From Candidatus Multivoradales bacterium (GTDB taxonomy: Bacteria > Acidobacteriota > Thermoanaerobaculia > Multivoradales > JAHEKO01): DNA of 64,000 bases. Below are positions 26,449-61,576 of the stretch, piece after piece. The notes beneath the pieces were generated by a model. The model worked only from the letters and a program-made list of their open reading frames with translations. It did no database searches and was not told the DNA's origin. The stretch is from positions 128,001 through 192,000 of the forward strand of contig CBDCVR010000014.1 of the NCBI GenBank assembly GCA_965223155.1, read 5' to 3'. Position 1 is the stretch's first letter; each line of letters opens with the position of its first letter. The position numbers and the translations under genes were made by a program.

Positions 26449-27285
26449 ATGCTCGAACGAACCCTCGAACCGCGAGACCTGACGGTCTCAGATCCAACCA
26501 GCTCCGTACGAAGGCCGGGCCCGAGCACAGCCCGGGACATCGCCGGGCGCTCTTGGGGCTCGACCTACTCGGCCATGGGCCCGGTCGTGGCCCTGGTCCT
26601 GGGATGCTTCTTCGGCCCGCTCCTGGGAGCGGCGCCGGCCACGGCGGCTCCCCCGCCCCAGATCGCCTTCGAGGGCAACGTGGTGCGGGGCACGCGGATC
26701 GCTCCGGGGGGCGACGTCCTGGTGGTGGGGATCTCGCACGAAAGCCTGCCGTTTGAAGCGCGGCGGTTCACCTACGTCGAGATCCTGATCGACGGCGACC
26801 AGGACGGCGCGGTCGACTACGAGCTCGCCAACCCGGTCTCCTCCGGCTCGGTGTGGGCCGTGGTGGACTTGACCAGCGGCAAGTGGGCGATCGCGGCGCC
26901 GGCGGGCTCGCCCATGCGGGCGAAGCCCGGCCGGGGGGTGATTCCCCCGGGGGCTGGAGGCCCGGCCCGGAGCCTGATTGACGCGGGCGAGATGCTGGAC
27001 TTCTTCGTGGCTCGGGCGGGGACGGGAGCCTGGCGGATTACGGCCGGGGACGGCGGCGGCGCGGATCAGGGCGGCGAGGACGATGGCTTGATCGAGGTGG
27101 ATCTCGCCGCCGCGGCGCCGCTCGGAACGACGGCGGCGTTCGACGCCCTGGCGGCGGGCGACGTGATTCTCACGTTCGATCCACGACGTCTCGAGTTCAG
27201 CGCCGGCCGGGTGCGGCCCGGCAAAGGCGGTCCGGAGCTTGCCGACGTGACCGGCGGCGAGGGGGACGAGGGAGGTGTGTCGTGA
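26449..27285 (+). CDS. Exported hypothetical protein coupled to the Rhs gene
   Basis: GAGGAG 7 nt before ATG 26449 (alternative ATG 26575); hydrophobic signal ending APATA; GTGA overlap with the Rhs start. Confidence 0.72.
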   Translation: MLERTLEPRDLTVSDPTSSVRRPGPSTARDIAGRSWGSTYSAMGPVVALVLGCFFGPLLGAAPATAAPPPQIAFEGNVVRGTRIAPGGDVLVVGISHESLPFEARRFTYVEILIDGDQDGAVDYELANPVSSGSVWAVVDLTSGKWAIAAPAGSPMRAKPGRGVIPPGAGGPARSLIDAGEMLDFFVARAGTGAWRITAGDGGGADQGGEDDGLIEVDLAAAAPLGTTAAFDALAAGDVILTFDPRRLEFSAGRVRPGKGGPELADVTGGEGDEGGVS

Positions 27286-30200
27286 AGCGGCGCGGACACG
27301 AGAGAGCAGCGACGGCGAGGGTGCCGGCCCGGATCGCGGCCCCGACTCGAATTGGAGCGCCGGCCCTTGTAATGACCCTTCTCGCGGCTTTGGCGGCGGT
27401 CTCCGCCTCGGCCGTGGAGCATCCGGACCAAGCAGTCGGCTTCGCGGCCGGCGGCCTCCAGAACCTGGCGATCGACAACGTCTCGACCTACAACGGCGGC
27501 TTGACGGTCGCGGTGCCGGTCGGCCCGATGTTCCAACTAGTCTACAACAGCCACATCTGGAAGACGACGACCGTGGACGGCATCTACACGCAAGTCTTCG
27601 GCAATCCACGCAATACGGCGGGGATGGGCTGGCGCCTGCATCCCGGCAAGCTCTACGCGCCGAACTCCTGGTATGGCAACGAAACCACGGACTGGGTCTA
27701 CGTTGGACCGGACGGCAGCTCGCACAACTTTCACCAGCAGATGCATGTCGGCGAGGACGACGGCGACGGCAACGTTCTCTACACCCGGGACGGAAGCTAT
27801 CTGCGATTGCAGAAGGTGTGGGCAGGGACACAATGGCAAAAGGCGGTCGAGTTCCCAGACGGCACCCGACATATCTTCAAGCCCGTTCCTGGATGGGCAA
27901 CAAACTGGGAGCTTGCGCGGATCGAGGATCGTTTCGGCAACGCCACGACCTTCACCCAAGAGTATCCGGACGGAGGCTGGACCACCAGTCGTCACCTCTG
28001 GACCATCGTGGATCCCCATGGCCGAACCCACCGACTGAACTACGGCTGGCGCGGTGGTGTTCTCGAAAGCGTCGATTACGAGACGGTAGGCGGTCAGCGG
28101 GCCGTCTACCAGTTTGTCTACCAGTACATCCGTCACTTCATTCCGTACGACACCTATCCGTACAACAATGCGAGGCAGAGAAACTCGTTTCTGAAGAAAG
28201 TGATCTTTCCAGACGGCTCCGAGCTCAAGATGACGAAGCCGGATGGTTCGATGGCCTATCTGGGCAGCTACATCGGCTGGCCGACGGGAGTCTTGTCGAG
28301 CGTCGAGCTTCCGACCGGAGGCCGTCTGGAATGGGACTTCATCGAATGGCAGTTCCCGACCGCGAACCCGTCAGACCCTCAGAAGGGCGCCGGGGTGACC
28401 AACCGCCGGATGATCCGGGCCGACGGCACGGTCGAATCGGAGGTCGTCTACGATCAATCCTGGGTGGACGTCAACGGCACCTGGCCGCCGGAGCTCACCC
28501 AAACAGACGTGGTCTACCCGACCGGCCACTGCACGCGGCACTTCTTTCATCAGCAGCGGAACGTCAAGATCGACGGCACCAACGGATGGACGGGATGGGA
28601 CCACGGGCTGTCGTACCGCAAGGACATCGTGGATGGTGAACGCTATCTCTCGAGCGAGGTCTGGGACGGCTCGTCCGGGACCGCCTGCTCGGGAACCAAG
28701 CTGCGCTCGACCTACGCGCGCTACGAGCACGACAAACTGCCGAGCACCACGCACCCGGCGTTTCAGGACGAGTGGTTCGCCTCGAACATCCGGATGAAGA
28801 ACCAACGCATCGTCTACCATGACGACGGCGACCGCTGGGTCGATACCCTCAATGAGGACTTCGACGGCGTCGGCCACTACCGCAAGACCACGGTCTCGGG
28901 GACCCTGGGCCGGTCCCTCAACGATCTCAAGTGGACGGCGACGACCTACAACCCGACGCGCGGCACGTACGAGGTCGACGTCCTCTGGAACACCGAGACC
29001 GCGAACCACACCTACGTGCCGATGACACCTTCGGACGACTGGCTCCTGGGGCTCTACGACGCCGTCGAGACCCATGAGCCCGGGGCCTGGGGCTTCCAGA
29101 CGACGCGAGACGAATTCGACTTCGATCCAGCGACCGGCTTCCTGCGGGCACAGCGAACGCTGGCGAGCGGAACCACCCGCGGCACCAAGGACATCTTGCG
29201 GATCTTCACCCCGACGGCCGAAGGCCAGGTGGCAACGGCCTCGCTCTACGGCAGCGACACCAACCCGCTTACGACCGGCCCCGGCTGGACGCCGCCGGCG
29301 ACTTGGTCCTACCGGATCGAGACCACCTACCAGTTCGGCGCGGTCAAGACCTCGAGAGCGGTCAAGCCGGACGGAACCTATTGGCCGTATCTGGCGACCG
29401 ACGTGGATCTCGACCCCTCGACCGGCAAGGTCCTGGTCTCCCGCGACCCGACGGGCCTGGCGACGACCTACACCTACGACCTTCTGGGAAGAGTCACCGA
29501 GGTGGCCCCCGCCGAAGGGGCCATCACCCGGATCACCTACACCAACGCCGCGGCGGGGGCCCCGGCGATCCAGACCACGGTCCAGTACGCCGCGGACGGC
29601 ACTACCGAGCTCAGACGCTCCGAGGGCTGGTTCGACGATTTCGGCCGCACCTGGCGAGACCGCAAGATGGTTCCCGATCACGGCTGGGTCGAGCGCGAAA
29701 CACTGTACGACGCCTCGGGAGCGGTCTTCTCGGTCTCGGCTTGGGGAGACTTCACGAAAGTCACCCAGACCCTGGCCCGAGACGCCTTCGGCCGACCCAC
29801 CCACGTTCGGCCCGCCGAGGGGGCAGCTCATGACGTCACCTACACCTACCTAGGCGATCGCCAGGTCCACGTCCAAGCCTATGCAGCGACTACCGAGACC
29901 TCTGAAGCCCTTGTTGGCCGGGTGACTCGAAGCGACTCCTTCGGCCGCCTCGATCACGTCCTCGATATGGGACTCGTCGCCGGCCTCGACCAGCGCACCA
30001 ACTACTACTACGACGCCGACGGCAACCTCGGGTCGATCACCGCGATCGCCGCCGACACCTCGGTCGTTCAGGCCCGCTACTTCTGGTACGACCACCGGGG
30101 CTTCCTCAAGCAGGAAAAACACCCCGAGAAAGGCCCGACCGGCAACGGCTACGTCTTCTATTACGACTACGATCCCTCGGGCAAACCCGGCCGGATGGTC

Positions 30201-32366
30201 GATGGCCCGAATCACCTGGGCTATAGCTACGACTCCCTGGGACGCGTTCTCGCCGTCGTCGACAAGAACAACGCCGACCGGCCACTGAAGGAGTACGTCT
30301 ACGACACCGCCCCGGGCCGCGGCGCCGGCAAGCTCGCCCAAGCCACCCGGCACAACTACGTCACCCTCCCCTGGGACGCGACCGAGACGGACGCCTGGGT
30401 GACCGACCTCTACGACTACTCCGGCACCGCCGGAGCGCCCTCGGCCAAGACCACGAGCTTCGCCCGGGGTCCCTACCAATACACCTCGGCCTACGCCTAC
30501 ACCGACGGCGGCGCCATCGGCTCTGTCACCTATCCGACCTGTGACGCGGGCTTTGCCTGCCCCGCCACCCCCGAGCCCGCCCGCACCGTCTCCTACACCT
30601 ACGAGCAGGGGCTGCTCCGCCAGGTCCCGGGCTGGACCAATACCATCACCTACCATCCGACGGGCGCCTGGAGCCAGATGCCCCGGGTCAACACCGTCAC
30701 CGACGGCCGCGACTCCGACCCGGCCTCACCCGATCGCCTAAACCGCTTCCACGCCTCCTCGCCTTCGACCGGAGCCTCCTGGGACTCCGGGCCCATGGCC
30801 TACGATGGCTCGGGCAACTTGAAATCCATCGGCGCCGACACCTACACCTACGATCAGTCCTCGCGCCTCCTCTCCGGCACCGCCGGCGGCGAGCGCCAGG
30901 ACTACACCTACGACGCCTTCGGCAACATCACCCAGATCGCCCATACCGATGCCGGCGACACCCTGACCACCCGCTCCATCGGGGTCGTGCCCTCGACCAA
31001 CCGGTTGTCCGTCGCCACCTACGACGCGGCCGGCAACCTCACCTCCTGGGCCGGCAACACCTACACCTGGGACGCCCTGGGATCGCTGGTCCAGTTCAAC
31101 GGCGGCCAGAACGGCGGCGGCACCTACCTCTACGACGTCGAAGACCGGCGGGTCGCCGTCTTGAAAAGCCCTGACAACACCGCGGCCGCGAAAGATGAGA
31201 CCTACATCGTCCGGAGCCTGGCGGGCCAGACCCTGCGCGAGTTCACCGTCACCGGCCCCACCAGCCCCGCAACCCGGGCCTGGTCCAAGGACTACTTATA
31301 CGCCGCCGGCAACCTCCTTGCATCCGTCAAGACCGATGGCGCAGGAGGCGAAGACATCCGGCACTACCACCGCGACCACCTGGGGAGCCCGCGCTTGATT
31401 ACCGACGCATCAGGCTCCGAGGTGGGCCGGCGGACCTATCTCCCCTACGGCGAAATGGTCACCGACACCGCCTCCGACGAGACCCACAAATACACCCTCC
31501 ACGAACGGGACGAAAACTTCGCCGGCACCGACGACGACCTCGACTACATGCTGGCCAGGTACTACTCCCCGCACTTGGGAAGGTTCCTAAGCTGCGATCC
31601 CGAGAGGGGACGGGCGGAGCGGTTACAGACGCTGAATCGGTATGCGTATGCGTGGGGGAACCCGGTCAAGAATGTGGATCCGGATGGGAGGGATCCGTGC
31701 ACCGTGGAGGTCGTAGAGAGGTATACCGACGATGAAGGAAACGTCGTTGGCACCAGCAAAGGCACCGCGACAGACTGGGCCTGCGTCGAAGCACTTCGAC
31801 GAGAAGAGGAGCTCAGAAATCTCTGCTCCGACCCAGTTTTCAGTCGCTTGAACCCCGAGTGTACTGGGCAGGACTCGGGGCGGGAGCTTCACGAACTCAA
31901 TCCCGGCGCGGAGTTGGAACACTATGAGAACAAGTCGCAGAAGCTGGCCGAACTGATGGCACAGCCTCTAGACTGTGTTCGCCAGGCAACTAGGATGGGC
32001 AAGGGGCGCGAGCCCGGGCTGCTTGCGTGGGTTACCCCAGAAGCAGTGCGGTTCCACAGTTTTTGGGGCGGGTTCGGCGAAATCACAGGTGACGAATGGG
32101 CGGCTCAGATCCAGTACGCACAAGACAAACTTGGGGCACAGAACTGGCTGCTCGCAGCGCATGGGCACCCGAGCAAGCAAGCAGAATATAGTGCGGCGGA
32201 TCAGAAGGTGGCGAACTACTTCTTCGAGCTCGGCATGTTTTTCTACTCGGCGGCTGAGGGTGGCGTCGGAGATGCGTTCGGCCGCACATTTTCCTGGGCG
32301 AGCCTTAATGTTCACTCCTCCACTCCACGCAAGGCGTGCGTTGAGAACAAGATGATTCCCAAGTAG
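27282..32366 (+). CDS. Full-length Rhs/YD-repeat polymorphic toxin with signal peptide; JAB-like tip 1
   Basis: Hydrophobic signal ending AVSASA, many YD repeats, DHLGSPR, ARYYSPHLGRFLSCDP, NPVKNVDPDG; tip from 31689 with AHGHPS...YSAAD. Confidence 0.93.
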   Translation: MKRRGHERAATARVPARIAAPTRIGAPALVMTLLAALAAVSASAVEHPDQAVGFAAGGLQNLAIDNVSTYNGGLTVAVPVGPMFQLVYNSHIWKTTTVDGIYTQVFGNPRNTAGMGWRLHPGKLYAPNSWYGNETTDWVYVGPDGSSHNFHQQMHVGEDDGDGNVLYTRDGSYLRLQKVWAGTQWQKAVEFPDGTRHIFKPVPGWATNWELARIEDRFGNATTFTQEYPDGGWTTSRHLWTIVDPHGRTHRLNYGWRGGVLESVDYETVGGQRAVYQFVYQYIRHFIPYDTYPYNNARQRNSFLKKVIFPDGSELKMTKPDGSMAYLGSYIGWPTGVLSSVELPTGGRLEWDFIEWQFPTANPSDPQKGAGVTNRRMIRADGTVESEVVYDQSWVDVNGTWPPELTQTDVVYPTGHCTRHFFHQQRNVKIDGTNGWTGWDHGLSYRKDIVDGERYLSSEVWDGSSGTACSGTKLRSTYARYEHDKLPSTTHPAFQDEWFASNIRMKNQRIVYHDDGDRWVDTLNEDFDGVGHYRKTTVSGTLGRSLNDLKWTATTYNPTRGTYEVDVLWNTETANHTYVPMTPSDDWLLGLYDAVETHEPGAWGFQTTRDEFDFDPATGFLRAQRTLASGTTRGTKDILRIFTPTAEGQVATASLYGSDTNPLTTGPGWTPPATWSYRIETTYQFGAVKTSRAVKPDGTYWPYLATDVDLDPSTGKVLVSRDPTGLATTYTYDLLGRVTEVAPAEGAITRITYTNAAAGAPAIQTTVQYAADGTTELRRSEGWFDDFGRTWRDRKMVPDHGWVERETLYDASGAVFSVSAWGDFTKVTQTLARDAFGRPTHVRPAEGAAHDVTYTYLGDRQVHVQAYAATTETSEALVGRVTRSDSFGRLDHVLDMGLVAGLDQRTNYYYDADGNLGSITAIAADTSVVQARYFWYDHRGFLKQEKHPEKGPTGNGYVFYYDYDPSGKPGRMVDGPNHLGYSYDSLGRVLAVVDKNNADRPLKEYVYDTAPGRGAGKLAQATRHNYVTLPWDATETDAWVTDLYDYSGTAGAPSAKTTSFARGPYQYTSAYAYTDGGAIGSVTYPTCDAGFACPATPEPARTVSYTYEQGLLRQVPGWTNTITYHPTGAWSQMPRVNTVTDGRDSDPASPDRLNRFHASSPSTGASWDSGPMAYDGSGNLKSIGADTYTYDQSSRLLSGTAGGERQDYTYDAFGNITQIAHTDAGDTLTTRSIGVVPSTNRLSVATYDAAGNLTSWAGNTYTWDALGSLVQFNGGQNGGGTYLYDVEDRRVAVLKSPDNTAAAKDETYIVRSLAGQTLREFTVTGPTSPATRAWSKDYLYAAGNLLASVKTDGAGGEDIRHYHRDHLGSPRLITDASGSEVGRRTYLPYGEMVTDTASDETHKYTLHERDENFAGTDDDLDYMLARYYSPHLGRFLSCDPERGRAERLQTLNRYAYAWGNPVKNVDPDGRDPCTVEVVERYTDDEGNVVGTSKGTATDWACVEALRREEELRNLCSDPVFSRLNPECTGQDSGRELHELNPGAELEHYENKSQKLAELMAQPLDCVRQATRMGKGREPGLLAWVTPEAVRFHSFWGGFGEITGDEWAAQIQYAQDKLGAQNWLLAAHGHPSKQAEYSAADQKVANYFFELGMFFYSAAEGGVGDAFGRTFSWASLNVHSSTPRKACVENKMIPK

Positions 32367-33476: not shown

Positions 33477-33480
33477 GGTT

Positions 33481-35450
33481 CCAAGACCACGAGCTTCGCC
33501 CGGGGTCCCTACCAATACACCTCGGCCTACGCCTACACCGACGGCGGCGCCATCGGCTCTGTCACCTATCCGACCTGTGACGCGGGCTTTGCCTGCCCCG
33601 CCACCCCCGAGCCCGCCCGCACCGTCTCCTACACCTACGAGCAGGGGCTGCTCCGCCAGGTCCCGGGCTGGACCAATACCATCACCTACCATCCGACGGG
33701 CGCCTGGAGCCAGATGCCCCGGGTCAACACCGTTACCGACGGCCGCGACTCCGACCCGGCCTCACCCGACCGTCTCAACCGCTTCCACGCCTCCTCGCCT
33801 TCCACCGGAGCCTCCTGGGACTCCGGAACCATGGCCTACGATGGCTCGGGCAACTTGAAGTCCATCGGCGCCGACACCTACACCTACGATCAATCCTCGC
33901 GCCTCCTCTCCGGCACCGCCGGCGGCGAGCGCCAGGACTACACCTACGACGCCTTCGGCAACATCACCCAGATCGCCCATACCGATGCCGGTGGCACCCT
34001 GACCACCCGCTCCATCGGGGTCGTGCCCTCGACCAACCGGTTGTCCGTCGCCACCTACGACGCGGCCGGCAACCTCACCTCCTGGGCCGGCAACACCTAC
34101 ACCTGGGACGCCCTGGGATCGCTGGTCCAGTTCAACGGCGGCCAGAACGGCGGCGGCACCTACCTCTACGACGTCGAAGACCGGCGGGTCGCCGTCTTGA
34201 AAAGCCCTGACAACTCCGCGGCCGCCAAAGACGAGACCTACATCCTCCGGAGCCTGGCGGGCCAGACCCTGCGCGAGTTCACCGTCACCGGGATCGACAG
34301 CCCCGCCACCCGGGCCTGGCAGAAGGACTACTTATACGCCGCCGGCAACCTCCTTGCATCCGTCAAGACCGATGGCGCAGGAGGCGAAGACATCCGGCAC
34401 TACCACCGCGACCACCTGGGGAGCCCGCGCTTGATTACCGACGCGTCAGGCTCCGAGGTCGGACGGCGAACCTATCTCCCCTACGGCGAAATGGTCACCG
34501 ACACCGCCTCCGACGAGACCCACAAATACACCCTCCACGAGCGCGACGAAAACTTCGCCGGCACCGACGACGACCTCGACTACATGCTGGCCAGGTACTA
34601 CTCCCCGCACTTGGGAAGGTTCCTAAGCTGCGATCCCGAGAGGGGACGGGCGGAGCGGTTACAGACGCTGAACCGGTACGCCTACGCGTGGGGGAACCCG
34701 GTGAAGCATGTGGATCCGGATGGGAAGGATCCGTGTAATGTGATCTACACCAAGGACGGCGGTGTGTATTTTGAATGCGGAGGCTCCACTACTGCAAGCT
34801 CCGGGGAAGAAGAGAAGAAGGGCAACCCGGGACTACCCGGCGAGCCCTGCAATTTCTCGGTGGACGGGGTGGAGATGGGCACCTGCGGTGACGACCCTGT
34901 CGAGCTCTCGCTGATGGACCGTCTGCAGCAGATGCAGGAACATGGACAGCCATGTAAGACGTTTGAGGGCAAGGGACAGTGGGCTGGTTCCTGGAACTGG
35001 GTGATCGGTTCACAATCGGAGCACGCACTAAACGCCATGCAGCACCTCCTTCAGGTTTCCTATGATTCCGGAGGCAATTTCGCAGAATATGGGATGTACG
35101 CCTATTTGGATCCGAGTGGCCAAATCCGATTCTCTCAGCCGGTGACCCAGGGTGATCCAGAGCGAGTGTTCATCGATGTTGCGCCAGAGCACCAAGGCAC
35201 GCTTTTGTTTGCTGTTCACACGCATCCCAAAGGGCGGACTACGAGCGGGAGCCTGTTCGGTCGTGCAGGCGACGCTGCGTGGGCCGACTTTTGGACGGCG
35301 CCCATCTTCTCCGCATCCTCAGCAGGCGGCATCGCCATGGTCACTCAGAAGCTCACGGGCGGACGGGGCGAGGCTTCGGCCGCGTGGGCGTATTTTGGCC
35401 GAGGGCCGAACGGTGAACCCGTAGCCTTCCCAGCGTGTAATGGACGTTGA
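33481..35450 (+). pseudogene. Orphan Rhs cassette 2 (core fragment plus JAB-like tip)
   Basis: Near-identical copy of the core from KTTSFARG; DPDG ends 34724; EYG...AVHTHP...AGD. Confidence 0.88.
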
Positions 35451-35524
35451 TGCAATCCGAGAGCACGCCCTCAGGCGACTGTCAATCCGACCGAGAGGAA
35501 ACTCGGGTGCATAGGAGCAGTGGC

Positions 35525-36304
35525 ATGTCGCACCTTCGTCAGGTCGCGCTCGAGCACGTTGTCCTCTTTAGCCTCATGCTTCTGAGTAGCATGCTGATCG
35601 TTCCCTTGGGTTTGCGAGCGGTCCCGGTCGCCGTTGCGGCTTGGGTGGGGATCTTCGTACTACTCGTTCGCCCCGCTTGGGCGTATCTCTTCTTGCTTGC
35701 ATGGTGCCTCTTGACGTTCGGTGTTCGGTATGACGACTATCTGTTTAAGTTCTCATCGCCAATCTTGGCTACCGTTCCGTTGGTGATCCATCTAGTCCTT
35801 TCCTGGATTTGGTGGCAGACCGGCCGAGCCGAGGGCTCGCTCGCCAGCCGTAGGCGCTTATGGCAATACTTGGGTATCGGGCTCCTCGGTACATTCACGT
35901 TCTCCAGCCAGTACTGGTTAGGCGAACCTCGGGAGCCAATCGCTGTTGCGGCGCTCATGGCGTTCTTTCTCCTCATCTTTCAGATCGTGTTGCTGGCAAG
36001 TTTCTGGGCACGGGATCCCTGGCCCGCGATGACTCCGTTACGACTCACGACATGGCTTGTCGGATGGTACTTGTCGTACTTCTTGGTCGAAATGCAAGAC
36101 GGGTTCATTGTGAAGTTGCCTGCGGCTGTCACCGTCGCCTTCTTTGTTGGAAGCTTTCTGGTCCAGGCTTCCGCCTACCGAACGCTTGCTCGCGAGTTCC
36201 ATGAAAGACGCGGCTGGCGGGCGCTCTATGTCGCAACGGTAACCATCGCTGTACAGATGTCGTTTGCCGTCTTCGTTTTCTGGCGCGTCTACCTGGTCTA
36301 CTAG
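35525..36304 (+). CDS. Putative immunity protein 2, polytopic membrane protein (family C)
   Basis: Multiple TM segments; AGGAG before ATG 35525; paralog of 59921..60700. Confidence 0.7.
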   Translation: MSHLRQVALEHVVLFSLMLLSSMLIVPLGLRAVPVAVAAWVGIFVLLVRPAWAYLFLLAWCLLTFGVRYDDYLFKFSSPILATVPLVIHLVLSWIWWQTGRAEGSLASRRRLWQYLGIGLLGTFTFSSQYWLGEPREPIAVAALMAFFLLIFQIVLLASFWARDPWPAMTPLRLTTWLVGWYLSYFLVEMQDGFIVKLPAAVTVAFFVGSFLVQASAYRTLAREFHERRGWRALYVATVTIAVQMSFAVFVFWRVYLVY

Positions 36305-36366
36305 CCTGACGGACACCTCCTCGACTGCGACGAAAACTTTACCGGCGAGGCCGTTGCCGGGGGCTG

Positions 36367-37658
36367 CCGGCAACACCTCCACCTGGGACGCCCTGGGGTC
36401 GCTGGTCCAGTTCAACGGCGGCCAGAACGGCGGCGGCACCTACCTCTACGACGTCGAAGACCGGCGGGTCGCCGTCTTGAAAAGCCCTGACAACACCGCG
36501 GCCGCGAAAGACGAGACCTACATCGTCCGGAGCCTGGCGGGCCAGACCCTGCGCGAGTTCACCGTCACCGGCCCCACCAGCCCCGCAACCCGGGCCTGGT
36601 CCAAGGACTACTTATACGCCGCCGGCAACCTCCTTGCATCCGTCAAGACCGATGGCGCAGGAGGCGAAGACATCCGGCACTACCACCGCGACCACCTGGG
36701 GAGCCCGCGCTTGATTACCGACGCATCAGGCTCCGAGGTGGGCCGGCGGACCTATCTCCCCTACGGCGAAATGGTCACCGACACCGCCTCCGACGAGACC
36801 CACAAATACACCCTCCACGAACGGGACGAGAACTTCGCCGGCACCGACGACGACTTGGACTACATGCTGGCCAGGTACTACTCCCCGCACCTGGGAAGAT
36901 TCCTAAGCTGTGATCCGGAGAGGGGACGGGCGGAGCGGTTGCAGACGCTGAATCGGTATGCGTATGCGTGGGGGAATCCGGTGAAGAATGTGGATCCGGA
37001 TGGGAGGGATCCGTGTACAACGACCACCCAGGTAACAGTAATCTTCCCCGACGGTTCGACACAGGAATATACGGAAACCAAGGTCGACGAAGAATGTCGA
37101 GTTCAACAGGACTGGGACAACCGTTGTAATGACCCAGTCCTCCGCCGGGCTGACCCAACTTGTACGAGCGATTCGTTTACTGAAAATGAAGAATTGCACG
37201 GCGACTTGGAACTTGAAGACTTCGAGAACCGCACTCGCGAGCAGGCAACCGCGGTAGTTGGCCTACTCGACTGCCTCCGACAGGCAACCGCAATCGCCGG
37301 GGGAAAGGAGCCGTTCTTTGCACTTTTCCGCCACAACGGAAGGCTTAACATCGCCCACAACCCCGGTGTCCAAGTCGGCGCGGCGGACATCAAAGGTTTC
37401 CTAACAAACCTTTTCGATCAGTATCCTGGTGCGGAGGTCGCGCTCGTCGCTCACGGTCACCCGTCGGGGGACGGTACTCTTTCTCAGGACGACCTAGAGA
37501 TTGCCTTCGCGGCCTGGGGTGGATGGGAGTTCCTCGGAGTCGGGGAGAACGGGGTGGGAACATTGTGGGGAGGCCTAATGGGTTGGCAAGGGCTTGGACG
37601 GACCCAAGCTAGTTCCCTTGAGGACTGCGAGAGCATGGGATTCAAAATGCGGTGGTAG
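36367..37658 (+). pseudogene. Orphan Rhs cassette 3 (JAB-like tip)
   Basis: Core copy from GNT.TWDALG; DPDG ends 37004; KEPF...AHGHPSGDGTLSQDD. Confidence 0.88.
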
Positions 37659-47284: not shown

Positions 47285-48354
47285 TGAAGGCTTACCTAGC
47301 TGCAGCTGTCATTGCAGGTTCCGTTCCGCTTTTCGCGAACGAACTCTGCAGTTCCCTGGGAGCGACGGAAGGTGCGACTTGGCTCGAGTTTTCTAGCCTG
47401 GAGACCGAAGACCGGAATCTGATAGTACGAACGTCCGGCGAGCTATTCTTGGGTCCGAGCTTTACGGCCTTGTGCCCTCCTGGCTATGGTCTCAGTCGGA
47501 GTCGACCTCCGCTGTTGTCTGATTGCTTCCAACTCAACATAGATTGGAGGAACATTGGGATTCCGGCTTCGGAGGGGGATCGGATCTTGCGGCAGTGGGC
47601 AGGGCACGAGGTGGAGGTCGCCGGTACCCTAGCAGTGACGCCGCTGTCCTGGATGGAGCGGATTCTGGGCCGGGAATACGTTGGCTCCATCCGGGATGTG
47701 TTTGGAATTCAGCTTCTTTCTGCTCCCCCGGCTGCTGCGTACTGCATTGGGGTCTCGGTACCAAGCGTCTCAAGCGCGTGGGAGGAGCGATCGCTGCCGA
47801 TTGGAAGCGATAGACCATTGTGCTCTCTAGCCCGAGCAAATCGCGGCCCTGAAGAAGGCTACTGCATAGACCTGGCAAGGCCAATCGTCTGGCGAATCGA
47901 CAGTCTACTGGGGTTCGAGAACCAGGCGACGGACAGTCCCTCGACAAAGCTCCCCTTCGCTGTGCCAAGGCCGTTCTCGCCTCGAGATGTCGTCGAGCTA
48001 TCAGTAGCCGACGAGAACTACTTTTTCTTTACGCTTCACACGGGCGATCTGTTCTCCTTTGACGGTTCGTCTGTCCAGTTCGTTCGGAGTAGGTTTGTGG
48101 ACCTGCTGACCTACGACCGTGACGAGTGGATATACTACCGGGTCCGCGACATGAGCCCGATGCGGACCGTGGTGAGTAACTCGATCGAACGAGTTAATGC
48201 CACGGGTCTCGCGGAAACGGTATGGTCTTCCGATACCGATGAAGTGATCTTTTTTCGACTTCGAGAATCGAAAGAGTTGGAGTTGTCTTTGATAACAAGT
48301 TCTGGGCGCTGGATCGGCCCAATTTCAGAACGAGGTCGGAGACAAGAACGGTAG
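47281..48354 (+). CDS. Putative immunity protein 6, exported (family A)
   Basis: ATGA overlap; signal peptide; ALC...DCFQL...QWAGHEVEVAG; PFSPRDV. Confidence 0.72.
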   Translation: MMKAYLAAAVIAGSVPLFANELCSSLGATEGATWLEFSSLETEDRNLIVRTSGELFLGPSFTALCPPGYGLSRSRPPLLSDCFQLNIDWRNIGIPASEGDRILRQWAGHEVEVAGTLAVTPLSWMERILGREYVGSIRDVFGIQLLSAPPAAAYCIGVSVPSVSSAWEERSLPIGSDRPLCSLARANRGPEEGYCIDLARPIVWRIDSLLGFENQATDSPSTKLPFAVPRPFSPRDVVELSVADENYFFFTLHTGDLFSFDGSSVQFVRSRFVDLLTYDRDEWIYYRVRDMSPMRTVVSNSIERVNATGLAETVWSSDTDEVIFFRLRESKELELSLITSSGRWIGPISERGRRQER

Positions 48355-51236
48355 GTCATCACTCGCATCCCTACACCAACGCCGCCGCGGGCTCACCGGC
48401 GACCCAGACCACGGTCCAGTACGCCGCGGACGGCACCACCGAGCTCAAGCGCTCCGAGGGCTGGTTCGACGACTTCGGCCGCGCCTGGCGAGAGCGCAAG
48501 ATGGTGCCCGACCACGGCTGGGTGGAGCGCGAGACCCTGTACGACGCCTCGGGAGCGGTGTTTTCGGTCTCGGCCTGGGGAGACTTCACCAAAGTCACCC
48601 AGACCCTCGCCCGGGACGCCTTCGGCCGACCGACCCATGTCCGGCCGCCCGAGGGCTCGGCGCATGACGTCTTCTACACCTACATGGGTGACCGCCGCCA
48701 AGAGGCGACGACCTACGTGGCGACCTCGGAGACGGCGGAAAGCCAGGTCGGACGCAGGGTCATCCGGGACTCGTTCGGACGGCTGGACAACGTTCGAGAC
48801 CTGGGCCTCATTAGCGGCTTGAACCAGATCACGTACTACCGGTACAACGGCAGCGGCACGCTGGGCAAGCTTCATTCGAAGGCAGCCGATACGAACGTCC
48901 TCCAGGCGCGGGAGTTCATCTATGACCACCGGGGCTTCTTGCTGCGCGAGAAACATCCCGAGAAAGGCCCGTCTGGCAACGGCTCGGTCTTCTACTACGA
49001 CTACGATCCCTCGGGCAAACCCGGCCGTATGGTCGATGGCCCGAATCATCTCGGCTATAGCTACGACTCTCTGGGGCGGGTACTCGCCGTCGTCGACAAG
49101 AACAACGCCGACCGGCCCTTGAAAGAGTACGTCTACGACACGGCCCCGGGCCGCGGCGCCGGCAAGCTCGCCCAAGCCACCCGGCACAACTACGTCACCC
49201 TCCCCTGGGACGCGGCCGAGACCGACGCCTGGGTTACCGACCTCTACGACTACTCCGGCACCGCCGGAGCGCCGTCGGCCAAGACCACGAGCTTCGCCCG
49301 AGGTCCCTATCAATACACCTCGGCCTTCACCTACACCGACGGCGGCGCCATTGCTTCCGTGACCTACCCCACCTGTGACGCGGGCTTTGCCTGCCCGGGC
49401 ACTCCCGAGCCCGCCCGCACCGTCTCCTACACCTACGAACAGGGCCTTCTGCGCCAGGTTCCAGGCTGGACCAACACCATCACCTACCATCCCTCGGGCG
49501 CCTGGAACCAGATGCCCCGGGTCAACACCGTCACCGACGGCCGCGACTCCGACCCGGCTTCACCCGATCGCTTGAACCGCTTCCACGCCTCCTCGCCCTC
49601 CACCGGAGCCTCCTGGGACTCCGGGCCCATGGCCTACGACGGCTCCGGTAACTTGAAATCCATCGGCGCCGACAAGTACACCTACGATCAATCCTCGCGG
49701 CTCCTCTCCGGCACCGCCGGCGGCGAGCGCCAGGACTACACCTACGACGCCTTCGGCAACATCACCCAGATCGCCCACACCGATGGTGGTGGTGGAGTCA
49801 CCACCCGCTCCATCGGGGTCGTGCCCTCGACCAACCGGTTGTCCGTCGCCACCTACGACGCGGCCGGCAACCTCACCTCCTGGGCCGGCAACACCTACAC
49901 CTGGGACGCCCTGGGGTCGCTGGTCCAGTTCAACGGCGGCCAGAACGGCGGCGGCACCTACCTCTACGACGTCGAAGACCGGCGGGTGGCGGTCTTGAAA
50001 AGCCCTGACAACACCGAGGCCGCCAAAGACGAGACCTACATCGTCCGGAGCCTGGCCGGCCAGACCCTGCGCGAGTTCACCGTGACCGGACTCGACAGCC
50101 CGGCCACCCGGGCCTGGCAGAAGGACTACCTCTACGCCGCCGGCAACCTCCTTGCATCCGTCAAGACCGATGGCGCAGGAGGCGAAGACATCCGGCACTA
50201 CCACCGCGACCACCTGGGGAGCCCGCGCTTGATCACCGACGCATCAGGCTCCGAAGTGGGCCGGCGGACCTACCTCCCCTACGGCGAGATGGTCACCGAC
50301 ACCGCCTCCGACGAGACCCACAAATACACCCTCCACGAGCGCGACGAGAACTTCGCCGGCACCGACGACGACCTCGACTACATGCTCGCTCGCTACTACT
50401 CCCCGCATCTCGGGCGGTTCCTAAGCTGCGACCCGGAAAGGGGACGGGCGGAGCGGTTGCAGACGCTGAACCGGTATGCCTATGTTTCCGGCAATCCTCT
50501 TTCACGAATAGATCCGACGGGAAGTTGCGAGGTGATTCTAGACGATCGTGGGGATTTCGTCGGCCTAGAAGGTAAGGACTGTCCGCAGATTGATGGATCA
50601 ATCAAAGTGACAGACGAACCCGATCTGCTTCCGGAATTACCCAGGGGCGGGACTACACTGCCCGGAAGTGATGGTAGATCGGTTGACTCCTGTTCCGATC
50701 CATTCAGATACGACTACCTTCGGTGCCGTGAGGCTGGGGATTATCGCGATTTTCGCGTAAGAGACGAGGAGTTCGACAATGAACAGAAGAACTGGGGTGC
50801 GATGACTCAAAAGCAAGCTGCTCACATCTTGGATCGAGACCAGAAAGCGCTGTGCAAGTTTCAGACGATGGCCAACAGCTCCAGTACTGAAGTGGCTCTT
50901 GCAATGGAACATCGTGGCTTCATAAACGGTGTAGCCGCAACGTCTCCTCACTTTTTTGACAGCAATAATGCGAGGGCTACCAGAGGATCCATCGAGTACG
51001 ATCTGCCCGCCGGCAGACGTTGGGCGTATGAGATCCATTCCCACCTAACTGGGAGTAACTCACCATCCGACGCCGACTGGGAAGGCTCTTGGGACATGCA
51101 GGCAGTAGGGTTCCTCTATGATGTATCAGAACGAGAGTGGTTCGCATACCAGGCGATTCGACCGAACCCGAGTGGTCGCTCGTCCCTGCCTGCCGGTTTT
51201 CAAGCGTCGCTGGGTGCTTTCGATCCGTGCGGGTGA
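48355..51236 (+). pseudogene. Orphan Rhs cassette 7 (longest core; JAB-like tip)
   Basis: Core from YTNAAAG; NPLSRIDPTG ends 50522; TEVAL...EIHSHLTGSNSPSDAD. Confidence 0.88.
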
Positions 51237-52738
51237 GCCAAGTGCATCGAACCGTGGCTCGGGATGGCCTCGACATCACTGCGGCATCCTCAGCCGTTGT
51301 ACTGTGTGTTCTTGTCTGCCTGATCGAAATAGCGATTTCTCAATCGGTCGCAGGGCAGCAGCTCGAGTGGCCGGGCTCGTGTCGGTCCGACGAAGATCCC
51401 TGCAGCGCCATGGCGCTGTCGGCTTCCTTCCAGGCCAAGGAGGGGCGGCTGTCGGTGTGCGTCGATGGTCAGGGTCGACCCATTCTCTGGAAGGAACGCA
51501 AACCCAGACGGTATGGCTGCCAGGAGCTAGGGTGGCACGGGACGAAGCTCCCAATGCCACCAGGGCGATCGTCCGACGACCTCATTCAAATCGAAGCACT
51601 TGCTTCCGAGAATGCCGGCCTGGTGCTCTTGCTTTTCCGCGATGGAAGCCTGTTCTCTTGGGACTGGAGTGCTCCGGATTTGTCTCTGCTGGAATCGACA
51701 GGTGTCCGTGAGTTGTTTCGGCGTCCCGGTCTCGTCTTCTATTCTCAGAGCAGCGTCGAAGAGAGTGTTTCGGCGGAGTCTCTCTACTCCATATCCGGAG
51801 CCGGTCAAAAGCGGCAGGTCTGGAGCTTCGAAGGGCGGCATCTCGCGCATGTCTTCTTGAATCCAAATGGAGAAGGAATCGGGGTGCTTACCGAGTTCAA
51901 GGAGCACGAAGAAGAGTGGCTGGTCGATGACTCCGGCGCCAGGTTGGTGCAAGCACGCCGCCGAAACTGGGAGCTTCCCTTGGAAGCCTGGGAGCCGGTC
52001 GAACGACCTACCCTTGATCCAGGGGAAGTCCCAGGCTGGCTCCTCGGTCAGTGGTCGCTCCGGGAAGAGAACGATCACATCGTAGCCGCAAGCCCAAAGC
52101 CGGAGAGGCGTGGAGACGAAGTGCCCTTCTGGGTACCGCTGCGGCGAGGCCGGGAGGGTGAACGAATCGCCCTCAGGGTCGACAACGGATTCCTCCTCGG
52201 CTTCGATATGGGCGAATGGGGAGGAGGACTGTGGTTCTTCGACCCTGCCGGAAAGCAGTCCTACCCACTCTTTGCCGACAGCGATCCTGTGAACGATCTT
52301 CTGGATCTAGGTCACGAAGTTGTTGCGGTCTCCAGAGGTGCAAGCCGAGTTCGCTTTGAAGGTCAGGTACGGCTCGCTCCGTGTCTCTGGCGCCTTCACA
52401 AGGCCGGCGATCGTTGGGAGGTTCGGGAAACCCTGAAATGCGACGGCGTCTACGCGTCTTCCGTCCAGAACGATGGATCCCTTCTATTCGCCTCGCCGAC
52501 TGCGTTACATCGCTATCGGGACGGTGGGATCGAACGCCTGCATGAATTCAGAGGCTCGATTGCGCCGATTTCGATGCTGGCGAGGTCTGAAACCGAGATC
52601 TGGCTGGGGCTTGTCAACGCTGTCGTTCGACTCGACAGGAGCGGTACCGACTGGTCAGAGCAGTGGTTTGCCCCACCACGTGATCCTGATCCGGACTCTG
52701 AGCGTTGTCGAGAGCCCCGAGAAACTTACGAGGACTAG
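51233..52738 (+). CDS. Putative immunity protein 7, exported (family B, propeller-like)
   Basis: GTGA overlap; hydrophobic N-terminus; DNGFLLGFDMGEWGGGLW and WLGLVNAVVRL...WSEQW shared with 58219..59724. Confidence 0.7.
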   Translation: MSQVHRTVARDGLDITAASSAVVLCVLVCLIEIAISQSVAGQQLEWPGSCRSDEDPCSAMALSASFQAKEGRLSVCVDGQGRPILWKERKPRRYGCQELGWHGTKLPMPPGRSSDDLIQIEALASENAGLVLLLFRDGSLFSWDWSAPDLSLLESTGVRELFRRPGLVFYSQSSVEESVSAESLYSISGAGQKRQVWSFEGRHLAHVFLNPNGEGIGVLTEFKEHEEEWLVDDSGARLVQARRRNWELPLEAWEPVERPTLDPGEVPGWLLGQWSLREENDHIVAASPKPERRGDEVPFWVPLRRGREGERIALRVDNGFLLGFDMGEWGGGLWFFDPAGKQSYPLFADSDPVNDLLDLGHEVVAVSRGASRVRFEGQVRLAPCLWRLHKAGDRWEVRETLKCDGVYASSVQNDGSLLFASPTALHRYRDGGIERLHEFRGSIAPISMLARSETEIWLGLVNAVVRLDRSGTDWSEQWFAPPRDPDPDSERCREPRETYED

Positions 52739-52874
52739 AAGGCGTCGAAGGGCAGGCGCGACCATGCGGACGACCCCCGTGTTCGTCAACAGCGCGATGC
52801 ATCTGGGTAGCGGTTTGGAGCCTTGACCATTGATGCCCAAGCCTTCGAATTTCACACCACGAGCACCGCGACCT

Positions 52875-54736
52875 CGTCGACAAGAACAACGCCGACCGGC
52901 CCTTGAAGGAGTACGTCTACGACACCGCTTCGGGCCGCGGCGCGGGCAAGCTCGCCCAAGCCACCCGGCACAACTACGTCACCCTCCCCTGGAACGCGAC
53001 CGAGACGGACGCCTGGGTGACCGACCTCTACGACTACTCCGGCACCGCCGGAGCGCCCTCGGCCAAGACCACGAGCTTCGCCCGAGGTCCCTATCAATAC
53101 ACCTCGGCGTACGCCTACACCGACGGCGGCGCCATCGGCTCGGTGACCTACCCCACTTGTGACGCAGGCTTTGCCTGCCCGGGCACTCCCGAGCCCGCCC
53201 GCACCGTCTCCTACACCTACGAACAGGGCCTTCTGCGCCAGGTTCCAGGCTGGACCAACACCATCACCTACCATCCCTCGGGCGCCTGGAACCAGATGCC
53301 CCGGGTCAACACCGTCACCGACGGCCGCGACTCCGACCCGGCCTCGCCCGACCGTCTCAACCGTTTCCACGCCTCCTCCCCCTCCACCGGAGCCTCCTGG
53401 GACTCCGGGACCATGGCCTACGACGGCTCCGGCAACTTGAAATCCATCGGCGCCGACAAGTACACCTACGACCAGTCCTCGCGGCTTCTGTCCGGCACCG
53501 CCGGCGGCGAGCGCCAGGACTACACCTACGACGCCTTCGGCAACATCACCCAGATCGCCCACACCGATGGTGGCGGTGGAGTAACCACCCGTTCGATCGG
53601 AGTCGTGCCCTCGACCAACCGGCTGTCCGTCGCCACCTACGACGCCGCCGGCAACCTCACCTCCTGGGCCGGCAACACCTACACCTGGGACGCCCTGGGG
53701 TCGCTGGTCCAGTTCAACGGCGGCCAGAACGGCGGCGGCACCTACCTCTACGACGTCGAAGACCGGCGGGTGGCGGTCTTGAAGAGCCCTGACAACACCG
53801 AGGCCGCCAAAAGACGAGACCCACAAATACACCCTCCACGAGCGCAACGAGAACTTCGCCGGCTCCGACGACGACTTGGACTACATGCTGGCCAGGTACT
53901 ACTCCCCGCACCTGGGGAGGTTCCTCAGCTGCGACCCGGAAAGGGGACGGGCGGAGCGGTTGCAGACGCTGAACCGGTACGCCTACGCGTGGGGGAACCC
54001 GGTGCGGTACAACGATCCCGATGGGAGGGATCCGGACGATCCCGAGGACGACTCCGGGGATGATTCCGGAGACGGTGACCTTCCCGATGCGGACGACTGC
54101 GCGGACAACCCCAAGCTGTGCGCGACCATTAAGGACAAGACAGACGCTACCGATGATTCACCGATACCGGCCTACTGCTCGATTGCTCAGAATAGAAATA
54201 CTCTCTTCTGCCGGTACCTAAGTCAGAACTTTCAGACAACCCCACCTCACGGCCCTGCGGCTTACAAGCCGACTTTTGCGAACGGCCTACGGACGGCATT
54301 CGACAGTCTGACCGGTCCTGACACCGTCAGCTACCTAAGGTGCGGCCTCACCAAGGCCACCAGCACTGGACTCGAATTCGGTGGCCACCTTGTCCGCAAT
54401 TCGTTTGGTGATCTAGCTCGTCGGATGACAGGCAACCAGGGTTCAAGACACGTGTCTATTGGCCCTGCCCCACCCGGAGCCGTCTTTGGATGGCATACGC
54501 AACCCGATGGTACTCACCTGGGCCCAGGAGATACAGCTGCCTTGTCAAGCGGTGATCAGCGCGGTATCCCACATATCATCCTCGACTCAAGACGGGGATC
54601 TGGTGGCCAGTTCACCGTCTATGTGCCAATAGAGGGAAGCAAGCCTCGAGCGGTCTTCTCGTCTCGTCTAAACAAGCTGCCCGGCTGGACAGGTAGCAAC
54701 GGAAACTGTGATTACGAGGGAGCGGCCAACTATTGA
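52875..54736 (+). pseudogene. Orphan Rhs cassette 8 (JAB-like tip), internal deletion plus frameshift
   Basis: Core from VDKNNADRP; jump at 53813; DPDG ends 54025; LEFGG...GWHTQP...GPGD. Confidence 0.86.
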
Positions 54737-57576: not shown

Positions 57577-57581
57577 GGAGG

Positions 57582-58228
57582 GTATGGATATGCGTGGGGG
57601 AATCCGGTGCGGTACCGAGATCCGGATGGGAAGAAGCTGCGGCGGTTCGAGACTAGCGACGAAGACGACGAGCAAGAAGGAGAGGGAGAGGAGGAGGAAG
57701 ATCCGACTTTCTCCGACGCGATAGTCGTCAGTGGCACCGGTGTCCCAGCGGTTTTCGATGCGTGCTCCAGTGACCTCTGGAGAGCATACCCAGAATGCAC
57801 TGGGCAAGATTCGATGACCGAGCTCATTGAGCTTCACCACGACATCGAGTTCGACACGCTGGAGTCTCAGTGGCAGCAGGACAATCGACGGTGCCACGCA
57901 ATACGCATTTGATTCTTGGGACGCTCGGAACACTACGGCGACAAGGAGCTACATCGATCTTCCGTTGATCCGGGGTGCCAAGTACCTATGGGGCATTCAC
58001 ACTCACAACGGTGATGGCAATTCGCATGGAGACGCAAAAACTTCCTGGCTGCTGGGGGCTTGCCTGCGCGAGTCGGGCGAACATTCCTGGGGCGTTCCGT
58101 ATATGGCTGTAGACTCAGACGGGGACTGGTCCGCGGTGCTCGCCCTGCGGAACCCTGATGCCGGACGCACGAGCCGTAAGAGCTTTTTGTCGGTCGACTT
58201 AGGCCAATTTGGGAATCCATGCGGGTAG
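57582..58228 (+). pseudogene. Orphan Rhs cassette 9 (minimal core, frameshifted JAB-like tip)
   Basis: YAWGNPVRYRDPDG only; frame change near 57860-57900; GIHTHNGDGNSHGD in the second frame. Confidence 0.78.
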
Positions 58229-61429: not shown

Positions 61430-61490
61430 CCCAGTGAAGAAGCACTCACTCCTTCCCTAGAGCTAGAAAGAATCGATACAGGAGGACCGG

Positions 61491-61576
61491 CGCCTGGGTG
61501 ACCGACCTCCACGACTACTCCGGCGCCGCCGTCGCTCCCTCGGCCAAGACCACGAGCTTCGCCCGAGGTCCCTACC
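61491..61576 (+). repeat. Terminal 86-bp Rhs core relic
   Basis: Degenerate copy of the AWVTDLYDYSGTAGAPSAKTTSFARGPY coding sequence (about 30392-30477). Confidence 0.85.

Follow-up and report, generated by a model that had tools for sequence, protein, structure and literature searches.

An Rhs array in a Multivoradales genome, probably Sec-exported, whose alternative tips are almost entirely JAB/MPN-like

Organization of the Rhs locus

The locus described here lies in a 64-kb window (the whole stretch of DNA that was analyzed) of the genome of Candidatus Multivoradales bacterium (Acidobacteriota; assembly GCA_965223155.1, contig CBDCVR010000014.1), which is ~4.0 Mb in size, has about 68% G+C, and is 98.7% complete. 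All genes of interest are on the + strand, between 26.4 and 61.6 kb of the window, and form an Rhs toxin array in which eight of the nine C-terminal tips (T1 to T9) carry a motif like that of the JAMM zinc enzymes of the JAB/MPN superfamily. A pattern search finds nine PxxxxDPxG core/tip junctions in an Rhs context, which extend from 31.6 to 57.6 kb and are all + strand; a tenth match, at 55273, is inside I8a and has no Rhs context. The tips that follow the nine junctions are 217 to 241 amino acids (aa) long, and each is followed by one or two further open reading frames (ORFs), which we refer to as partners (I1 to I9). The first junction ends the 1469-aa core of the main Rhs gene (27282-32366; 1694 aa), which matches Pfam RHS_repeat at 2.5e-11 and the RHS family PF03527 with only 20.3 bits against a cut-off of 27.9. 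The remaining junctions belong to eight orphan cassettes, whose 3' core fragments have 81 to 100% amino acid identity to residues 753-1469 of the main core, and the array ends at its 3' side in two partner-type genes without tips (I10 and I11) and a 96-base core remnant (Table 1).

The sequence-only reading, made earlier from the letters of the window and its translated ORFs, placed the start of the system at 26449, but this is the ATG of a separate upstream ORF, and the Rhs gene begins at 27282. Homologues of this accessory ORF are present in 15 of 40 related genomes and, in the cases checked, share the strand of an Rhs core and are located ~4.3 kb upstream of its end. It has no Pfam or NCBIfam match and is a candidate export or delivery partner for an Rhs lineage independent of a type VI secretion system (T6SS). 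An Rhs core like that of the window is found in 22 of the 40 relatives, often in many copies; a search with the C-terminus of the core retrieves only distant Rhs genes (27 to 44% identity) and no close relative.

Table 1. Features of the Rhs locus (coordinates are positions in the window)
Feature	Coordinates	Strand	Remarks
Accessory ORF, 278 aa	26449..27285	+	N-terminal hydrophobic anchor or signal; stop overlaps Rhs start codon
Main Rhs gene, N-terminus and core	27282..31688	+	Signal-peptide-like N-terminus (..ALVMTLLAALAAVSASA/VEHP); RHS/YD core ends PVKNVDPDG
Tip T1, RadC-like JAB domain	31689..32366	+	Glu, HGHx7SAAD, 6 Cys
I1, exported candidate immunity protein, 363 aa	32385..33476	+	Signal-like N-terminus; 31% identity to I3; no Pfam match
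Orphan 2	33480..35450	+	Core 33480-34724 (97.8% to core aa 1055-1469); tip T2 34725-35450: Glu, HTHx12RAGD, 6 Cys
I2, multi-spanning membrane protein	35447..36304	+	6 transmembrane-like segments; 42% identity to I10
Orphan 3	36354..37658	+	Core 36354-37004 (98%); tip T3 37005-37658: Glu, HGHx7SQDD, 6 Cys
I3, exported candidate immunity protein, 385 aa	37668..38825	+	Signal-like N-terminus
Orphan 4	38889..41195	+	Core 38889-40484 (97%); tip T4 40485-41195: Glu, HTHx6TAGD, 2 Cys
I4, exported two-repeat protein, 294 aa	41198..42082	+	Pfam DUF5818 17.5 bits, under 27-bit cut-off
IS3-family transposase ORF, splits array	42122..42904	+	Pfam rve_3 7.3e-30, rve 7.7e-23, HTH_21 4.4e-10
Orphan 5	44208..45806	+	Core 44208-45083 (81%); tip T5 45084-45806: alpha/beta-hydrolase-like, GHSEG; sole non-JAB tip
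I5, small membrane protein, 121 aa	45821..46186	+	N-terminus hydropathy
Orphan 6	46221..47284	+	Core remnant 46221-46606, frameshift near 46575; tip T6 46607-47284: Glu, HVHx6SRED, 2 Cys
I6, exported protein, 357 aa, I1/I3 family	47281..48354	+	Signal-like N-terminus
Orphan 7	48372..51236	+	Core 48372-50522 (90%); tip T7 50523-51236: Glu, HSHx7SDAD, 6 Cys
I7, exported or anchored protein	51233..52738	+	Start uncertain (in-frame GTGs 51227-51254); 35% identity to I9
Orphan 8	52873..54736	+	Core with internal deletion and frameshift near 53811; tip T8 54026-54736: Glu, HTQx6GPGD, 6 Cys
I8a and I8b, paralogous exported proteins	54733-56073; 56089-57450	+	27% mutual identity
Orphan 9	57577..58228	+	~18-codon core remnant; tip T9 in two frames (57631-57912, 57827-58228); HTHx5SHGD; Arg at Glu position
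I9, exported protein, 501 aa	58219..59724	+	Paralogue of I7
I10, orphan immunity-type gene	59921-60700	+	Multiple transmembrane segments, I2-like
I11, orphan immunity-type gene	60821-61429	+	Signal peptide; SPOR (peptidoglycan-binding) 16.7 bits, E 0.0095, under 21-bit cut-off
Terminal Rhs core remnant, marks array end	61483..61578	+	Core aa 1035-1066, 81%

Motif, fold, and family relationships of the tips

The JAMM-like motif starts 66 to 82 residues from the C-terminus in all eight tips that carry it (T1, AHGHPS..SAAD; T2, VHTHP..RAGD; T3, AHGHPS..SQDD; T4, VHTHH..TAGD; T6, FHVHP..SRED; T7, IHSHL..SDAD; T8, WHTQP..GPGD; T9, IHTHN..SHGD). The sequence-only reading had reported an HxH...(S/G)xxD pattern in eight of nine tips, and all of the strings it quoted are present, with the qualifier that T8 has HxQ. 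Six tips have the full set of Glu, HxH, and (S,T,R)xxD; the other two are T8 and T9, the latter frameshifted and with Arg in place of Glu. The canonical JAMM spacing is HxH-x7-S-xx-D, and the motif Glu...HxH-x7-S-xx-D is exact in T1, T3, and T7, with spacing or Ser variants in T2, T4, and T6. In a simpler form, HxHx5-7[ST]xxD, it occurs in six of ten tip pieces (T1, T3, T4, T6, T7, and T9b, from the frameshifted T9) and in none of the 12 partner ORFs, against chance rates of 0.0055 for a shuffled tip and, in long ORFs of the genome itself, 0.0026 for every 230 aa. The frequency of the motif is thus far above chance, and its position is fixed.

An upstream Glu lies 36 to 50 residues before the motif in seven of the eight tips, as had been claimed; in T9, where it had been called unclear, the aligned residue is Arg (STRW versus STEV in T7), and the Glu is therefore absent. 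The frameshift in T9 falls between 57815 and 57909, upstream of this Arg. In an alignment of the eight tips, the first His, the Asp, and a Cys near the C-terminus are all invariant, a second Cys is present 11 to 16 residues before the Glu in T1, T3, T4, T6, T7, and T8, and the number of Cys residues is even in every intact tip. The tips were also said to have little other identity, which holds across families but not within the pairs T1/T3 (30% identity; family A), T4/T6 (36%; family B), and T7/T9b (31%; family C). With T2 (family D) and T8 as singletons, these pairings leave five independent JAB-like tip families. The ninth tip, T5, has a GHSEG nucleophile elbow, no JAMM-type motif, and sub-threshold Pfam matches to DUF3089 and Thioesterase.

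Other enzyme classes with comparable motifs were set aside: M23/LAS-type peptidases have the reverse motif order, with HxxxD before HxH, and the tips contain neither the [HC]xE/PCxxC pattern of deaminases nor the HxHxDH of metallo-beta-lactamases.

The assignment of the tips to JAMM/MPN made in the sequence-only reading is supported by the fold of T1 and, weakly, that of T4, by retrieval of Prok-JAB and RadC proteins with tip profiles, and by language-model neighbors of T4 and T8. When the T1 core was modeled with AF2 on an alignment that contained T3 and no other sequence, one of the five models was usable (predicted local distance difference test score, pLDDT, 71.3; predicted template modeling score, pTM, 0.68). 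Compared with 48,161 representative chains, this model is most similar to RadC (2qlc_A; Z 9.4, root mean square deviation 3.0, 111 residues), the sole chain with a Z of 8 or more, and ranks 2 to 10 are BRCC36, Rpn11, PfJAMM1, CSN5, Cap3, and other JAB/MPN proteins; Foldseek gives JAB/MPN or RadC throughout among the matches listed (best E 2.6e-3). The model of the T4 core, built with all eight tips as the alignment (pLDDT 59.8), has RadC (Z 6.3), AfJAMM (5.7), and PfJAMM1 (5.7) at its top ranks, none with a Z of 8 or more, and a best Foldseek E of 0.11. The structure search of the tips after DPxG that the sequence-only reading had proposed supports JAB/MPN for T1 and, with a lower Z and a model of low confidence, also ranks it first for T4. 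In both models the Glu is at the start of a strand and HxH at the end of one, with the Asp at the start of the next helix, which is the JAMM arrangement.

Further evidence is provided by profile searches. A profile of six tips, built without T1 and T3, matches four of 400 other genomes of the class at E ≤ 0.01, and all four matches are Pfam Prok-JAB proteins above the 25-bit cut-off (92.8, 27.0, 34.6, and 86.9 bits); the weight of this search comes from all four being JAB. Over 400 genomes, per-genome E values of 4e-4 to 4.5e-3 do not amount to significance. A profile of all eight tips finds matches in 96 other genomes, among them the unpublished G526, which is counted in this total alone. Pfam scans of 17 of its 19 best outside loci identified 14 as RadC and one (L073) as Prok-JAB; the two left out, L072 and L088, have a stop in the open frame and show an HxHP..S..D motif by eye. 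Per-genome E values in these reverse searches (Prok-JAB in 4/4, RadC in 14/17) range from 1e-7 to 1e-2. Against 177,635 PDB sequences the top two matches of the eight-tip profile are RadC (E 0.19), followed by the JAB-like 2kks (E 1.5), which are not significant alone.

Nearest neighbors in ESM language-model space are leads rather than proof, and for the T4 core they are Toxin-JAB1 (0.94), DUF4329 (0.93), and Prok-JAB; for the T8 core the top neighbor is DUF4329 (0.94), and a single clan accounts for seven of the ten best family-bearing matches. Comparison by hhalign of T2, T4, T6, and T8 with three true DUF4329 domains of the phylum gives P 2.2e-4 (0.1 for the T5 control), with P 0.0026 for T2 against DUF4329. 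Between tip families the values are 4.5e-4 (B-D), 1.7e-3 (B-C), and 2.6e-3 (C-D), with T5 controls at 0.1 to 0.8; family A and T8 alone are weak. We conclude that membership of the JAB/MPN superfamily is well supported for T1 and T3 and reasonably supported for T2, T4, T6, and T7, and that the placement of T8 and T9 as decayed members is supported.

No tip fits an existing Pfam family. The RadC family (PF04002; 22.1-bit cut-off) aligns to ~25 residues each of T1 (11.5 bits, E 0.28) and T3 (14.3 bits, E 0.041), and T7 has sub-threshold matches to Prok-JAB (E 0.051) and Toxin-JAB1 (E 0.11; 13.4 bits versus a 21-bit cut-off); T2, T4, T6, T8, and T9 have no Pfam JAB-family match, even below threshold. 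With DUF4329 (PF14220; 28.6-bit cut-off), hmmscan finds no tip match at E 1 and scores the positive control, the tip of related locus L003, at 82.6 bits. NCBIfam has no match for the ten locus proteins scanned. Searches for homologues were similarly sparse: T7 has none among proteins of 130 to 415 aa, the length range searched, and none in the 40 relatives; T2, compared with 1.84 billion representatives, finds only itself and one spurious Gram-positive repeat protein; and the T1 region finds only itself among proteins of 931 to 2965 aa, again the range searched.

Partner proteins and related loci

By a simple hydropathy script and inspection by eye, all 12 downstream ORFs appear to be exported or in the membrane: I1, I3, I4, I6, I7, I8a, I8b, I9, and I11 have signal-peptide-like N-termini, and I2, I5, and I10 have multiple transmembrane segments. 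The same script applied to Rhs loci of the relatives scores 26 of 40 downstream ORFs as signal-like or membrane, many with a lipobox, and 14 of 40 as apparently cytoplasmic; partner location is informative because it varies within the lineage. A lipobox ORF follows in three of three cases, after the true DUF4329 Rhs tips of the phylum (L003 and L004) and after L039, a DUF4329-like tip in the closest relative. The genome encodes LpxC, and no match to TssC (PF05943) or PAAR (PF05488) of a T6SS was found in this 98.7% complete genome. The main Rhs protein does not qualify as a T6SS-delivered Rhs effector, having a signal-peptide-like N-terminus in place of PAAR.

Because all partners seem exported or membrane-located and the tips have paired Cys residues, the toxins most likely act outside the cytoplasm, and these features of the predicted proteins favor the periplasm or envelope as the site of action. 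An even number of Cys residues is also seen in 40 of 41 distinct Rhs tips of the relatives (17 of them without Cys), which fits folding in an oxidizing compartment across the lineage. Tips of the relatives include an M23-like and a Tlde1/YkuD domain, and HExxH occurs in 12 of the 41. The class of enzyme suggests a peptide or isopeptide bond as a putative substrate.

The partners are partly related to one another. I1, I3, and I6 form one family, which hhalign connects to I8a/I8b (probability 78%, P 1.8e-5, 167 columns); weaker links join I8a/I8b to I4 (P 6.6e-4) and I1/I3/I6 to I7/I9 (P 0.009), and I2/I10 and I5 are unrelated membrane proteins. The partners had been described as paralogous, which describes I1/I3/I6 with I8a/I8b and, weakly, I4 and I7/I9, but not I2/I10 or I5. 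Two pairs of related tips, T1/T3 and T7/T9, have partners that are also related (I1/I3 and I7/I9, respectively), and T4/T6 shows no such co-variation. ORFs like I6 are present in an Rhs locus of relative G022 (tblastn 2.5e-10 and 3.4e-9), a profile search with I1/I3/I6 over the protein lengths covered found only the window's own proteins, and ten partner ORFs have no Pfam match at threshold. Complex prediction for the T1 core with I1 scored 0.00 against a mark of 0.32, which is evidence neither for nor against binding.

We compared the array with the 41 distinct tips of relatives, taken from 14 regions and from single loci; these form 32 BLAST clusters, Pfam names only five, and only the tip from G022 looks JAB-like by eye, with no Pfam match. 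JAB-like tips therefore make up 8/9 here versus 1/41 in relatives (Fisher P 1.5e-7), or 5/6 versus 1/32 by family (P 7e-5), with kinship inflating both values. This enrichment agrees with the earlier view of an unusual single-fold array, but homogeneity by itself is not exceptional, because related array L036 (G034:C3:380000-399000) has HExxH tips in four of five cassettes.

Several other loci were noted in passing. In the closest relative (L039; G022:C5:2110000-2126000), the second cassette carries, after a DLDG junction, a tip that is M23-like (HxxxD...HxH). A second Rhs/YD family in the present genome (contigs C15, 952-982 kb, C9, and C2) has ~25% identity to the window core and at least three tandem copies, with short, cysteine-rich tips that are not JAB-like. 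Among the best outside matches of the tip profiles are L073, L085/L094, and L093 (genomes G522, G462, and G448), small stand-alone Prok-JAB proteins in frames of ~146 to 215 aa with signal-peptide-like N-termini; exported JAB proteins thus exist in the class outside Rhs loci.

Known systems and alternative interpretations

JAB-type toxin tips on Rhs proteins were predicted in 2012 by Zhang et al. (PMC3482391), who give the residue set of toxin JAB domains as E, HxH, S, and D; the sequence-only reading was right that Tox-JAB and DUF4329-type Rhs tips are known. Tox-JAB-2/DUF4329 (PF14220) is likewise a C-terminal toxin module after an Rhs DPxG junction, its E, H[ST]H, S, D signature fits T2, T4, T7, and T9, and DUF4329 clusters are the ESM neighbors of T4 and T8. 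A DUF4329 Rhs tip of the same phylum (L003) has in common with the window tips the E-x-G-G strand, the preceding Cys, and the C-terminal Cys. The window tips differ in giving no PF14220 score at E 10, in having HGH (T1/T3) or HVH (T6), in often replacing the Ser of SxxD (RAGD, TAGD, and GPGD), in occurring as eight such tips in one array, and in their large, exported partners, whereas the same paper lists Imm-NTF2-2.

Tox-JAB-1 (Toxin-JAB1; PF15659) is described in PMC3482391 as an Rhs-borne, Sec-type ('T2SS') JAB toxin with an exported lipoprotein immunity protein, Imm65, and it is the top ESM neighbor of T4 and a sub-threshold Pfam match of T7. However, it is there reported from Bacteroidetes only and with an NxxxE motif, T7 scores 13.4 versus 21 bits, the genome has no PF15659 match at E 10, and the window partners lack a lipobox and exceed a typical immunity protein three- to fivefold in size. 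RadC (PF04002; PDB 2QLC) is the best structural neighbor of both models (Z 9.4 and 6.3), its retrieved sequences share the HxHPS-x6-SxxD spacing of T1 and T3, and its genes are retrieved from other genomes by the eight-tip profile. RadC, however, has housekeeping functions in the cytoplasm and contains an N-terminal UPF0758 domain; the tips are without that domain, have paired Cys residues, follow an Rhs cage, and, in T1 and T3, score 11.5 and 14.3 versus 22.1 bits.

The succession of a main rhs gene and cassettes of core fragment, tip, and immunity gene resembles known Rhs/WapA orphan arrays. The released Rhs bacteriocin of Xanthomonas perforans, Bcn-A, is active in culture supernatant, and T6SS involvement is not described in the excerpts of PMC7259588, which makes it a precedent for an Rhs toxin with no described T6SS involvement. 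The window differs from both in the conserved exported accessory gene that precedes its Rhs gene, and from the Rhs arrays of its relatives, with many tip types (32 clusters among 41 tips, one JAB-like), in having one fold in eight of nine tips.

We consider it probable, though by no means secure, that this is a T6SS-independent, Sec-exported Rhs locus whose cassettes diversify a disulfide-bonded JAB zinc hydrolase acting in the envelope. According to this interpretation, a diderm bacterium would express one Rhs gene carrying T1, preceded by the conserved exported accessory gene. Each cassette combines a 3' piece of the core with its own alternative tip and partner gene, and by analogy with known Rhs orphan arrays the expressed tip could be replaced by cassette tips through recombination in the 81 to 100% identical core. 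The eight tips would be very divergent JAB/MPN enzymes, presumably zinc dependent, with T1 and T3 RadC-like and T2, T4, T6, T7, T8, and T9 resembling DUF4329/Tox-JAB-2 and Prok-JAB. As far as their sequences tell, T1, T2, T3, T4, and T7 look catalytically complete and expressible after a swap, whereas T6, T8, and T9 are decayed. The toxins would most likely cut an envelope substrate, for example peptide or isopeptide bonds in peptidoglycan or in proteins attached to it, and would most likely be blocked in the envelope by the partly paralogous exported proteins acting in immunity. The diversification of one catalytic fold proposed in the sequence-only reading agrees with eight of nine tips being JAB-like, but three of the eight JAB cassettes are decayed, and nothing points to the host targeting that was also suggested.

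A more specific form of this interpretation, which we put forward only tentatively, is that periplasmic, disulfide-stabilized JAB toxins cut envelope (iso)peptide links, such as peptidoglycan cross-links or protein-peptidoglycan tethers, that the array is a one-enzyme specificity library co-evolving with partly paralogous, large exported inhibitors, and that T6SS-independent Rhs delivery depends on the conserved exported accessory protein. JAB/MPN domains are known as cytoplasmic isopeptidases and putative nucleases, and if the target is in the envelope, the fold would gain a new compartment and a new class of substrate. The locus would also define an Rhs lineage that depends on Sec rather than on a T6SS and has a conserved accessory gene, with tips and partners almost all unknown to Pfam and NCBIfam. 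Rhs proteins with JAB tips (Tox-JAB-1 and Tox-JAB-2/DUF4329) are already in print, as are Rhs toxins of the Sec type and orphan arrays; new here are tip sequences for which no family match or outside homologue was found, an array almost monopolized by a single fold, partners that all look exported and are partly paralogous, and the conserved accessory gene. In the excerpted literature searched on DUF4329/Tox-JAB toxins we found no biochemical study, and the only published guess there is 'nuclease'. In this locus a single genome provides five JAB tips that are apparently intact and differ greatly from one another, all of them paired with an exported partner.

Several results weigh against this interpretation. 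No tip reaches the Pfam gathering score of any JAB family, PF14220 and PF15659 find nothing in the six-frame translation of the genome even at E 10, and with hidden Markov models (HMMs) built leaving out one family at a time, the left-out tips are not separable from shuffled sequences. The fold models cover T1 and T4 only, with one of five T1 models usable at pLDDT 71, and the T4 model is poor (59.8), was made from an alignment that contained T1 and T3, and does not reach Z 8. The six-tip profile does not detect T1 or T3, so family A is linked to the other tips through fold and motif only. As for the partners, their signal peptides were called with a crude hydropathy script, they are unusually large for immunity proteins (290 to 530 aa), and the homologous tips T4 and T6 have the non-homologous partners I4 and I6. 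Finally, both the nearest solved structure (RadC) and the published Tox-JAB prediction point to nucleases.

The last point leads to the strongest alternative, which we nonetheless regard as unlikely: that the tips are JAB-fold nucleases reaching the cytoplasm of the target, and that the exported downstream proteins block uptake or do something else. RadC is the best structural match of the T1 and T4 models and of the PDB profile search, toxin JAB domains are argued to be likely nucleases by Zhang et al. (2012; PMC3482391), and PMC10469887 includes the PAAR-Rhs-DUF4329 proteins of Salmonella among putative RNases, with immunity of the CdiI-like kind. However, nuclease immunity proteins are normally cytoplasmic, whereas 12 of 12 partners here are signal-like or membrane proteins, and the 14 of 40 relatives' partners that look cytoplasmic indicate that the lineage encodes such partners where needed; the paired Cys residues, moreover, suit an oxidizing compartment. 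To our knowledge, the nuclease activity of RadC is itself only a prediction.

Somewhat less probable again is that the array is mostly a graveyard of non-functional relics, left after a single ancestral JAB cassette was duplicated in tandem and decayed, with its homogeneity reflecting history rather than selection for a specificity library. Tips and partners do occur as pairs of 27 to 42% identity, an IS3 element lies inside the array, orphan immunity genes and a core remnant stand at its end, and three of eight JAB cassettes are visibly broken or lack a catalytic residue (T6 with a frameshifted junction, T8 with a core deletion and HxQ, and T9 with a frameshift and Glu-to-Arg). Nonetheless, orphans 2, 3, 4, and 7 retain long open core fragments (90 to 98%), intact tips, and intact partners. 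The tips of a pair are only ~30% identical while the flanking core is nearly identical, and because the tips diverged beside near-identical core, continued recombination and diversifying pressure fit these patterns.

Least probable is that the motif is convergent or coincidental and the tips are several unrelated folds, with only T1 and T3 JAB-like: leave-one-out HMMs no better than shuffles, pairwise hhalign probabilities of 0.1 to 45%, the absence of Pfam or NCBIfam matches at threshold, and the low confidence of the T4 model are set against a constant motif position and strand/helix context, a six-tip profile without T1 and T3 that retrieved Prok-JAB only (4/4), JAB-clan families as ESM neighbors of T4 and T8, JAB/MPN chains ranked first even by the low-confidence T4 model, and a Cys pair conserved across families.

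Outside the array, Pfam identifies the flanking genes as housekeeping functions (M16 peptidases, an FtsX/MacB permease, a thiamine pyrophosphate enzyme, an aldehyde dehydrogenase, and a PilZ protein), and a minus-strand open frame of 859 aa (15958-18537) has no Pfam match at 1e-3 and a coding-like G+C content at third codon positions. A 73-base repeat is present just upstream of cassettes 5 and 9 (44048-44120 and 57504-57576; 93% identical), which are those with the shortest or most divergent core pieces. Both copies read LTFSKGV.PTW in the cassette frame. Contigs C13 and C4 carry related copies, and a piece of 23 bases occurs at 59762-59784. Compared with window positions 33480-36304, a 3.8-kb contig of the same genome, C1, has an identical T2 tip and I2 gene; the core fragment upstream of them has 96% identity to the main core, and the downstream one has only 70% and matches no window cassette. 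Contig C1 represents either another copy at a different place in the genome or a variant form of the array within the population.

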